NCBI RefSeq assembly: GCF_000026545.1
Contig: NC_011601.1
DNA from: Escherichia coli O127:H6 str. E2348/69
GTDB taxonomy: Bacteria > Pseudomonadota > Gammaproteobacteria > Enterobacterales > Enterobacteriaceae
Length of the DNA stretch: 64,000 bases
Reading direction: 5' to 3' (one strand)
Part shown: positions 9,790-43,348 of the stretch, piece after piece
Numbering within the stretch: position 1 is the first letter of the stretch
Layout: the number at the start of each line of letters is the position of its first letter
Position numbers and translations under genes: made by a program
Notes under the pieces: model-generated
Database searches by the model: none
What the model saw: only the letters and a program-made list of their open reading frames with translations
Told to the model about the DNA's origin: nothing

Positions 9790-9799
9790 AAAAATCCCC

Positions 9800-9807
9800 C
9801 CGAGCGG
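9800..9807. repeat. left copy of target-site duplication flanking IS50-like element
   Basis: ccgagcgg immediately before the element end; identical 8-mer immediately after the other end at 11358..11365. Confidence 0.6.
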
Positions 9808-11357
9808 CTGTCTCTTATACACAAATCCCCACCCGGGGATTTGTGATGTCTGTCAGTCTGCTTTAGGGGGACTCTTTCCATCCGGTAGTTTCCTTCCTCC
9901 CCGGCAGCGATTTTTTGAACTTTTTCCTCACCCGTTGATCTTCTCTTATATTTCATTTTCTTCGGGTCTGTTATGGTACTTTCTGATTGTTATTCATGGG
10001 CTAACGAGCAGTTTGGACATGCCCGTCTCGGTGATCCGCGTCGTACACGACGCCTTGTGTCACTGGCCTCTTCTCTCGCTCAGCATGCAGGTCTTTCTAT
10101 TGTGAAATCATCCCAGTCCACTGCTCAGGTTGAAGGTGCGTACCGCCTGATACGTAACCCGTCTGTGTCCCCGCAAGCCATTGCCGAAGCCGGATTTACC
10201 GCCACTGTAAGGGCATGTGAGGCTCATCCGCTGCTCCTCGCGCTGGAAGACACCACCACCATTAACTTCAGTCACAGTACGGCATCTGATGACCTGGGGA
10301 ATACCACCACTAACCCGAAGACGCGCGGGCTGCTGGCTCACTCTGTCCTGATGTACGCCCCCGACAGCGCCCTGCCAGTCGGTCTTATCGAACAGCAGCG
10401 CTGGAGTCGTGCCACGGACACCTACGGTGTTAAGCACCAGCGAAAAGAACGTCCCTATGAAGAAAAAGAAAGTTACCGCTGGCAGCAGGCTTCGGAGCGC
10501 ATGGCCGAATGGCTGGGGGAGATACAGAAACGGGTAATCACTGTCTGTGACCGGGAAGCGGATATCTGGCATTACCTGCATTATAAAGTCAGCCACGGGC
10601 AGCGCTTCGTGGTGCGTGCAGCACAGAATCGCCGGCTGGAAGAAGCACCCGGCAAGCTCTTCGAACTGCCGGAAGTCCTGGCAACCGCGGGAAGCCACAC
10701 GCTGAATGTGATGCAAAAAGGCGGGCGGGCAGCCCGCCAGGCCCGGATGTTCATCAGTTACAGCGAAGTCAGCATAAAAAATCCCGACAACAGCGGCCAG
10801 GCGCTCCCGCTCACGTATGTCTGTTGCCGGGAGCAGGCAGAGGACGGCGCCTGCTGGCATCTGCTGACGTCAGAAAAAGTGGCGAGTGCCGCCGATGCGC
10901 GACGTATCGTCAGCCATTACGAGCGACGCTGGCTGATAGAGGAATACCACAAGGCGTGGAAAAGTGGTGGTACATGTGTGGAATCGCTGCGAATGCAGAC
11001 CCGGGATAACCTCGAGCGCATGGTGGTTATCAAGGCGTTTATCGCGGTGCGGGTGCTGGGCCTGCGGCAGGGCGGTATCAGTGAAGAAACACAAAATGAC
11101 AGCTGTGAGAAAATACTGACGCCGACAGAGTGGAAACTGCTGTGGGTTAAGCTGGAAGGAAAACCGCTTCCGTCACAGATGCCGACACTGAAATGGGCCT
11201 GTCTGAAACTGGCGAAACTGGGGCGATGGCATGACAGCAAACGCACCGGTCGCCCCGGTTGGGTAGTCATGTGGGATGGCTGGTTCAGACTTCAGGATAT
11301 GGTTGAGGGTTACCTGGTGATGAAGTCTCTTGATCAGGAGATCTGATCAAGAGACAG
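9808..11357 (+). mobile_element. IS50/Tn5-like insertion sequence (IS4 family), apparently complete
   Basis: left terminus ctgtctcttatacacaaat (17/19 to Tn5 OE, 17/19 to ME); right terminus agatctgatcaagagacag is the exact reverse complement of the Tn5 inside end CTGTCTCTTGATCAGATCT; single transposase ORF reads from the OE-like end and stops inside the IE-like end as in IS50; flanked by direct repeat ccgagcgg. Confidence 0.85.
9973..11346 (+). CDS. IS4-family (IS50-group) DDE transposase
   Basis: 457-aa ORF with Tn5 Tnp hallmarks: LGDPRRT near N-terminus, ALEDTT and VCDREADI (catalytic Asp positions), RWLIEEYHKAWKSG (YREK motif with catalytic Glu); overall only moderately similar to canonical Tn5 Tnp as recalled. 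Confidence 0.85.
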   Translation: MVLSDCYSWANEQFGHARLGDPRRTRRLVSLASSLAQHAGLSIVKSSQSTAQVEGAYRLIRNPSVSPQAIAEAGFTATVRACEAHPLLLALEDTTTINFSHSTASDDLGNTTTNPKTRGLLAHSVLMYAPDSALPVGLIEQQRWSRATDTYGVKHQRKERPYEEKESYRWQQASERMAEWLGEIQKRVITVCDREADIWHYLHYKVSHGQRFVVRAAQNRRLEEAPGKLFELPEVLATAGSHTLNVMQKGGRAARQARMFISYSEVSIKNPDNSGQALPLTYVCCREQAEDGACWHLLTSEKVASAADARRIVSHYERRWLIEEYHKAWKSGGTCVESLRMQTRDNLERMVVIKAFIAVRVLGLRQGGISEETQNDSCEKILTPTEWKLLWVKLEGKPLPSQMPTLKWACLKLAKLGRWHDSKRTGRPGWVVMWDGWFRLQDMVEGYLVMKSLDQEI

Positions 11358-11365
11358 CCGAGCGG
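11358..11365. repeat. right copy of target-site duplication flanking IS50-like element
   Basis: ccgagcgg, identical to 9800..9807; the two flanks reconstitute the C6-GAGC-G6 hairpin expected at this site. Confidence 0.6.
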
Positions 11366-11381
11366 GGGGATCTCAAAACAA

Positions 11382-13240: not shown

Positions 13241-13454
13241 AAGGATTCTCTTGGTGGGGAGGGGTAGGGGGATGAAACTAGTTTACTGCTGATAAAGAGA
13301 AGTTTCAGGCACGTAATATTTTATTTTTATTACAATTTTTTGATGAATGCCTTGGCTGCGATTCATTCTTTATATGAATAAAATTGCTGTCAGTTTTACG
13401 TCTTGTCCTGCCATATCGCGAAATTTCTGCGCAAAAGCACAAAAAATTTTTGCA

Positions 13455-39214: not shown

Positions 39215-40768
39215 TTATTTCAGATTCTTTCTAATTATTTTCCCCGAGCAATTACGTGGCAGATCTTTTCTGATCTCCAGATAAGAGAGCACTTTAAATT
39301 TCGCCATATTCTGTTCACAGAAGCAGAAGAATTCCTCTTCGCTCAATGTTTCACCTTCATTCAGCACCACAAATGCTTTGATGGCTTCATCGCGAATCGA
39401 ATCTTTAATACCCACAACCACGATATCCTGAATTTTTGGATGGGTGGCGATGATATTTTCGAGCTCCACGCAGGAGACATTCTCGCCACCGCGTTTGATC
39501 ATATTGCAGCGGCGATCGACGAAATAAAAAAAGCCCTCTTCGTCGCGGTATCCGGTATCGCCGGTATGTAGCCAGCCATCGGCTTCCAGTACTTTCGCAG
39601 TGGCTTTCGGGTTGAGAAAATACTCTTTGAAGATGGTTTTCCCTGGTACGCCTTTAATACAGATTTCACCGATCTCACCTGCCGGGAGCGGGCGATTGTG
39701 ATCGTCGCGGATCTCCGCTTCGTAGCAAAACCCCGCCTGACCAATCGACGGCCAGCGTCGTTTATCGCCAGGGCGATCGCCGATAATGCCAACAATGGTT
39801 TCCGTCATCCCATAAGACGTCAGCAAGCGAACGCCAAAGCGTTCACAAAACGCGTCTTTTTCCTGCTCCGACAAGTTGAGATAAAACATCACTTCCCGCA
39901 GGCGGTGTTGCTGATCGTTCGCTGAAAGCGGCTGCACCATCAACGTACGAATCATCATCGGAATACATTCGGTAATGGTGGCGCGGTACTTTTGCACCTG
40001 TCCCCAGAAGGCACGGGCGCTGTATTTCTCGACCAGCACAAAGGTGGCCCCGGTAGAAAACGCCGCCATCGCCGCAGTACACTGGCAATCGATATGAAAC
40101 GCAGGCATTACCGTCAGGTAGACGTCATCGTCACGCAGTGCACACTGCCAGGCGGAGTAATATCCAGCGAAGCGCAGGTTGTAATGAGTTATCACCACCC
40201 CTTTCGGTCGGGAGGTGGTGCCGGAGGTGAAGAGAATTTCCGCCGTATCGTCAGTCGATAGCGGCGGTGCATAGCACAAGGTGGCAGGTTGTTGATTTTT
40301 CAGTTGAGTAAACGAACTCACGCCATCATCAGCGGGAAGTGACACATCTGTCAGGCAAATGTGCCGCAACTGCGTGGCATCTTCCTGCTGAATCTGTTGA
40401 TACATAGGATAAAATTGCGCACTGGTCACCAGCAGGCACGCCTGGCTATTTTGCAGGATCCACGTGCTTTCTTCGCGCAACAGGCGGGCGTTAATCGGCA
40501 CCATAATCGCGCCAATTTTTGCCAACCCGAACCAGCAAAAGATAAATTCCGGGCAGTTGTCGAGATGTAGAGCAACCTTGTCGCCTTTGCGAATCCCCAG
40601 CGTATAAAACAGGTTTGCCGTGCGGTTAATCTCCTGATTTAACTCAAGATAACTATACCGGTTAACGACTCCGCTGCTGGATTCACAAATCAGCGCCGTT
40701 TTATGACCGTAAACGTCCGCCAGATCGTCCCACATTTGACGTAGATGTTGTCCGCCAATGATATCCAT
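39215..40768 (-). CDS. caiC: carnitine-CoA ligase
   Basis: 517 aa from [22 protein letters not shown]-binding motif [10 protein letters not shown]. Confidence 0.9.
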
Positions 40769-43318: not shown

Positions 43319-43348
43319 CTTTCAACCTCTTGATATTTTGGGGGTTAA

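Follow-up and report, generated by a model that had tools for sequence, protein, structure and literature searches.

The 8-bp target-site duplication of an ISEc13 copy in Escherichia coli E2348/69 and the motif that flanks it

ISEc13 between mog and satP

The window is the whole stretch of DNA that was analysed, which consists of 64,000 nucleotides at the start of the Escherichia coli O127:H6 E2348/69 chromosome, and its coordinates are the same in NZ_LT827011.1. The insertion described here lies between mog and satP, two genes that are convergent. The inserted element is identified by its annotation as a copy of ISEc13 and is 100% identical to the other copies in E2348/69. Its database matches are annotated as 'IS4-like element ISEc13 family transposase', and the exact transposase protein carries the name 'transposase of ISEc13' in the records of E2348/69. 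The features of the locus are listed in Table 1.

Table 1. Features of the ISEc13 insertion and of the target that surrounds it, in window coordinates.
Feature	Position	Strand	Description
Left target arm TCCCC	9795-9799	.	Positions -5 to -1; within the stem of what was the satP terminator
Left copy of the 8-bp target-site duplication, CCGAGCGG	9800-9807	.	Abuts the element
ISEc13 (IS4 family, IS50 subgroup)	9808-11357	+	1550 bp; full-length matches of 99.8-100% identity in many E. coli genomes
Left terminal inverted repeat, CTGTCTCTTATACACAAAT	9808-9826	+	Like the IS50 outside end, 17/19 bases identical
Transposase gene	9973-11346	+	Single ORF without frameshift, 457 aa (ORF list)
Right terminal inverted repeat	11339-11357	-	Reverse complement CTGTCTCTTGATCAGATCT; same as the IS50 inside end in 19/19 bases
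Right copy of the 8-bp target-site duplication, CCGAGCGG	11358-11365	.	Abuts the element
Right target arm GGGGA	11366-11370	.	Positions +1 to +5

The transposase contains two Pfam domains that score above their cut-offs, PF14706 (Tnp_DNA_bind, 70.1 bits) and PF01609 (DDE_Tnp_1, 32.1 bits). The C-terminal dimerisation domain PF02281 scores 24.1 bits against a cut-off of 26.7. Tn5 transposase structures were matched at E = 7e-83, and the alignment brings the DDE and YREK residues of both proteins together. The motifs EDTT, CDREAD, and YERRWLIEEYHKAWK align with the Tn5 residues that we take to be numbered D97, D188, and Y319/R322/E326/K333. The terminal inverted repeats of the IS50 subgroup have the signature CW------Y---CA-A--W- (PMC2266710). 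The left end of ISEc13, CTGTCTCTTATACACAAATC, satisfies every position of this signature, and the right end, CTGTCTCTTGATCAGATCTC, satisfies it except at position 19 where C is found in place of W. The right inverted repeat also contains two GATC sites and the stop codon of the transposase. Judged from its sequence, the copy is apparently intact.

Both ends of the element contain hairpins. A perfect hairpin, CACAAATCCCC-ACCC-GGGGATTTGTG, occupies element bases 13-38 (window 9820-9845), and a 13-bp palindrome (GTCTCTTGATCAG / CTGATCAAGAGAC; window 11325-11355) shares bases with both the right inverted repeat and the stop codon of the transposase. The putative role of these hairpins might be to block read-through or to stabilise mRNA.

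ISEc13 was compared with IS50/Tn5, for which the Tn5 reference was read from plasmid pMAK2. Both elements exhibit similar outside ends and identical inside ends (Table 1), the latter including both GATC sites. They also share a single-ORF organisation, a right end that contains the stop codon, a DNA-binding domain of the Tn5 type at the N terminus, and the DDE and YREK residues. However, the transposases are 38.8% identical (BLASTP, 480 aligned columns), and the DNA between the ends of ISEc13 cannot be aligned with that of IS50/Tn5. In Tn5, Met56 is the start of the inhibitor protein. No Met of the ISEc13 transposase (residues ~48-57, window ~10114-10143) stands opposite Tn5 Met56 in the alignment, and ISEc13 may be without inhibitor-protein regulation of the Tn5 kind.

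The empty site, where positions 9794-9807 are joined to 11366-11371, forms a hairpin with 11 bp in its stem and four bases in its loop, after which U7 follows on the satP strand. The fold has an energy of -19.1 kcal/mol (z = -3.6) and begins approximately four bases past the satP stop codon. This predicted hairpin is a textbook intrinsic terminator of satP. No terminator-like site remains at the split hairpin after the insertion, and with the terminator split the transcripts of satP may read into the right end of the element.

The duplication at the mog/satP site

The original prediction, made from the letters of this DNA, described an 8-bp repeat on both sides of the element with different bases at the ninth positions, and both its coordinates and its description are correct. 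The junctions read ...ATCCCC CCGAGCGG CTGTCTCTTATACAC...GATCAAGAGACAG CCGAGCGG GGGGAT..., and the wider junctions read ...AAAAAAATCCCC CCGAGCGG CTGTCTCTTATACACAAATCC ... GGAGATCTGATCAAGAGACAG CCGAGCGG GGGGATCTCAAAAC. The 9-mers that extend outward are unequal (cCCGAGCGG on the left versus gCCGAGCGG on the right), as are those that extend inward (CCGAGCGGc versus CCGAGCGGg), and hence no 9-mer is shared by the two sides in either register. The chance that an exact 8-mer abuts both termini in a fixed register is approximately 4^-8 (1.5e-5).

The empty site with a single CCGAGCGG was found in at least 30 E. coli genomes among the matches listed, where it matches over 400 nt at 100% identity as a single stretch without gaps; at least 80% of this 400-nt reconstruction is covered in 5,410 genomes. 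Since the empty site that was collapsed by 8 bp matches without a gap, the insertion added exactly 1550 + 8 bases. The comparison with an empty site had been proposed as a check on the duplication length, and the ungapped 100% match needs exactly 8 duplicated bases.

The repeat might be regarded as a by-product of an older palindrome or of chance with no transposition footprint, as there is a hairpin at the site and a long inverted repeat (I1) in the flanks. However, CCGAGCGG is repeated directly and not as its complement CCGCTCGG. The empty sites have one copy of the 8-mer, and each of the other intact copies of ISEc13 has its own unrelated direct repeat. The probability of this explanation is considered negligible.

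The duplication would be 9 bp in reality if the true terminus were located one base further in or out, an offset that the original prediction had listed among the possible causes. Nothing but the expectation from Tn5 speaks for it. Neither 9-mer register matches, the termini align from base 1 with both the outside and inside ends of IS50, and the flanks of approximately 25 copies diverge right outside CTGTCTC...GAGACAG. The length that was inserted relative to the empty sites is also 1550 + 8. We therefore consider an offset terminus extremely improbable, and this cause was discarded in favour of a genuine 8-bp duplication.

Three separate assemblies of E2348/69 (NZ_LT827011.1, NZ_LT903847.1, and NZ_CP059840.2) have both junctions at 100% identity, and therefore an assembly error is unlikely. 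The junctions in this orientation are absent from all other genomes among the 5,426 E. coli genomes searched. In CP148541.1 (L021), ISEc13 is inserted at the same position of the same hairpin in the opposite orientation with the 8-bp duplication CCGCTCGG, which represents the 8 bases of CCGAGCGG read from the other strand. The L021 insertion happened independently and shows a stagger of the same length.

Duplication length among ISEc13 copies and relatives

Copies of ISEc13 were sampled from other genomes, plasmids, and one metagenome (loci L002-L031, L078, and L119-L122). Exact 8-bp duplications were found at 19 distinct sites, exact 9-bp duplications at five (L018, L019/L119, L025, L027, and L029), and an apparent 7-bp duplication at one. 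Many of the 8-bp cores are free of homopolymers, for example GTAGTAAC, CATTAAGC, and GTTTATGC. When one 9-bp copy is removed at L029 and at L025, the joined flanks match empty sites at 100% without gaps, and the 9-bp junction of L027 is identical in four genomes. Going by these sites, the stagger of ISEc13 appears to be 8 bp in approximately four-fifths of the cases and 9 bp in the rest.

The left-end scan of metagenome contigs gave mostly old relics that are internally deleted or truncated and have decayed flanks, and it added one clean 8-bp site (L078/L094). The members of the transposase's protein cluster were for the most part incomplete proteins and provided few contexts that could be used. 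A variant on an E. fergusonii plasmid (1564 bp) has recombinant flanks; it yields one 8-bp site when reconstructed and one 9-bp site that has a mismatch, and both were left uncounted.

The duplication of Tn5 is generally 9 bp. The same procedure applied to the Tn5 control in pMAK2, the one copy measured, gave 9 bp (CAACAAGGG), whereas the duplication of ISEc13 is 8 bp and sometimes 9 bp. The difference from the typical length in Tn5 to which the original prediction drew attention was thus reproduced, but it does not represent an anomaly because direct repeats of 8-9 bp have been published for the IS50 subgroup, and the mixture of 8 and 9 bp in ISEc13 fits this range (PMC2266710). The literature search gave nothing on 8-bp duplications of IS50-like elements apart from this review of the IS4 family.

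Two loci are known in both the 8-bp and 9-bp states, which are tRNA-Pro/eptB (L009 versus L027) and agp/yccJ (L015 versus L119). L015 and L119 are one gap apart in 2,136 nt, and therefore one-base indels at junctions or assembly errors do occur in public data.

These loci bear on the last alternative, where a canonical 9-bp duplication later lost one base of the C/G run at one junction or was miscalled in the assembly. A 9-bp repeat at the mog/satP insertion would read CCCGAGCGG or CCGAGCGGG. Such a loss is conceivable as the C6/G6 hairpin target is prone to slippage, ISEc13 is capable of 9-bp duplications, and the two states differ by one junction base at the two loci above; for any single copy, the resulting empty site would also be the same. 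However, the three assemblies of E2348/69 agree at both junctions, the L021 insertion of opposite orientation at the same position is also 8 bp, and the collapsed 8-bp site matches the empty sites without a gap. The 8-bp duplication is also the majority state, with 19 loci of which many are without homopolymers. A later loss is therefore judged very unlikely, and the change in the homopolymer after the insertion that had been suggested as a cause was not borne out.

The other copies had also been proposed as a check on the 8-bp length. They do include 9-bp duplications (5/24 sites), but the majority is 8 bp (19/24 sites) and the 8-bp call at the mog/satP site was not overturned. Of the causes put forward in the original prediction, it is the genuine 8-bp stagger in the cut of a divergent transposase of the Tn5 type that agrees with the empty site, the 19 distinct 8-bp sites, and the opposite-orientation insertion L021. 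The 8-bp stagger is real and known in kind, and the result is an ordinary one for an element that has already been catalogued.

E2348/69 has 27-30 places that match ISEc13. The copies at many loci and on plasmids are 99.8-100% identical, which suggests that ISEc13 has been active recently. Of the 5,426 E. coli genomes, 2,991 contain some ISEc13 sequence, but only 873 have a copy that covers at least 80% of the element. The remaining genomes have fixed relics such as bases 1-531 joined to 1121-1550, bases 1-452 only, and solo 50-bp ends (L076-L118 and L124). One of the relics is common to ST131 strains.

Several copies without a direct repeat are reciprocal recombinants whose flanks pair into 8-bp sites. 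The inverted copies L023 and L024 of CP148541.1 (~2.305 and ~2.366 Mb) have flanks that pair reciprocally into CTCCCCAA and CGAACCAG, which indicates an inversion of approximately 60 kb between the two. L123 is another case of a reciprocal recombinant. The copy on the E2348/69 plasmid pMAR2 (L010) is also without a direct repeat.

No ISEc13 was found in the transposase scan of species-representative genomes, which gave only relatives with 39-53% protein identity. These relatives were used for the comparison of duplication length only and were not counted as ISEc13 copies. They are IS50-subgroup elements in Alishewanella, Alteromonas, and several metagenome-assembled genomes (L034-L061), and they keep both end types, CTGTCTCTTATACACAAATC and CTGTCTCTTGATCACAAGTC. 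Their exact repeats are 8, 8, 9, 10, 10, 9, 9, 8, 9, and 12 bp within CCC...GGG palindromes, and reciprocal pairs among them give 8 and 11 bp. Flexible stagger and targets with C/G arms look like properties of this branch of the IS50 subgroup. In the relatives at ~49% identity, the cuts in most sites lie approximately 2 bp into the stem on either side of the loop. The flanking 9-mers of one relative (L049, 728-2216) are reverse complements in a loop (GGCAAAGCC on the left and GGCTTTGCC on the right) and not direct repeats, which may be due to recombination between copies in oppositely oriented hairpin repeats.

Target motif and the proposed insertion

All 24 sites with exact duplications (19 of 8 bp and five of 9 bp) have C at positions -4 and -2 and G at positions +2 and +4. 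The consensus of the ISEc13 targets is CCYCY-N8/9-RGRGG, where the arms are located directly outside the duplication. The positions of the duplicated core are low in information (up to ~0.75 bit). As background, the four invariant bases are found at 0.36% of the window positions, and for either core length there is one full motif per 64 kb. Unoccupied matches to the strict or loose motif are found in the window at 13247-13264, 40198-40215, and 43326-43344. The flanking-arm specificity appears well supported by these alignments; it is a side observation and is not put forward as novel.

The hairpin between mog and satP has been taken in both orientations (the window versus L021). At ybaY/ogt, agp/yccJ, and tRNA-Pro/eptB, ISEc13 is found in several strains that are unrelated, and part of the recurrence may be due to descent and not to repeated insertion.

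Two other rules for the choice of target were considered. Hairpin structure rather than sequence as the target is disfavoured for ISEc13, given the invariant bases and a distance from cut to loop that varies between sites. One of the 9-bp sites also lies inside the aldB coding sequence. The invariant bases, the varying distance, and the aldB site point to sequence reading by two transposase protomers, where each protomer would read one arm. Arm spacing alone as the strict determinant of core length was rejected, as an 8-bp core with equally good arms was available at L029 and 9 bp was used.

The strong flanking-arm motif is a further difference between ISEc13 and IS50/Tn5. Tn5 has a weak target consensus, A-GNTYWRANC-T, that lies mainly inside the duplicated 9 bp with one flanking base per side. 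The target consensus of IS10, NGCTNAGCN, lies within the duplicated bases. IS10/Tn10 belongs to the IS4-family subgroup nearest to IS50 and is similar to ISEc13 in its symmetric target preference. The duplication made by IS10 has a fixed length of 9 bp (PMC2266710).

The target of IS186 is 5'-GGGG(N6/N7)CCCC-3', where the arms flank the duplication, the core has one of two lengths, and the element is inserted in both orientations at hot spots that are hit recurrently (PMC5009759). Both IS186 and ISEc13 exhibit rare palindromic G/C arms outside the duplication and a core without sequence preference. In both, the core can have either of two lengths, the element can be inserted in either orientation, and certain sites are hit repeatedly. 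However, the polarity is reversed in ISEc13, with a C-rich 5' side and a G-rich 3' side. The arms of ISEc13 are pentamers with alternating invariant positions, its core is 8/9 bp and not 6/7 bp, and IS186 belongs to another subgroup of the IS4 family. By analogy, IS186 can be regarded as the closest published parallel to the target choice of ISEc13. A description of the flanking-arm specificity of ISEc13 was not found in the journal literature searched. Judged from titles and the openings of abstracts, none of the papers that mention ISEc13 appears to treat its target sites, and the supplements of the IS4 review have no mention of ISEc13.

We propose that ISEc13 would have been inserted into the terminator hairpin between mog and satP by cut-and-paste transposition of the Tn5 type, with chemistry that is presumed from homology to Tn5. 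The two 3' ends of the transposon would have been joined to the target strands at points 8 bp apart, and repair of the gaps would then have duplicated CCGAGCGG. The usual stagger of ISEc13 would be 8 bp, with 9 bp as a minority outcome. The site would have been chosen because the preferred symmetric target is present there, with the inverted pentamers CCYCY ... RGRGG around a core of 8-9 bp. We hold this account as a whole, with the Tn5-type insertion, the usual and minority staggers, and the choice of site by the motif, to be highly probable.

The duplication length is of practical value only, in that the annotation of ISEc13 should be based on 8 bp and occasionally 9 bp instead of the 9 bp of Tn5. 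ISEc13 reuses a small set of sites in both orientations, and therefore shared insertion sites are unreliable markers of common descent. A broader view, which we put forward tentatively, is that ISEc13 combines near-exact Tn5 ends with a highly specific symmetric target, CCYCY/RGRGG directly outside a core of 8 bp and sometimes 9 bp, that guides its insertion to GC-rich terminator hairpins and repeats of a similar kind, and that the relatives at ~49% identity (Alishewanella and Alteromonas) behave likewise with cores of 8-12 bp. If undescribed, these would be natural transposases of the Tn5 family with sequence-specific target capture and flexible stagger, and such arm specificity in combination with Tn5-like ends could be of interest to Tn5 engineers.
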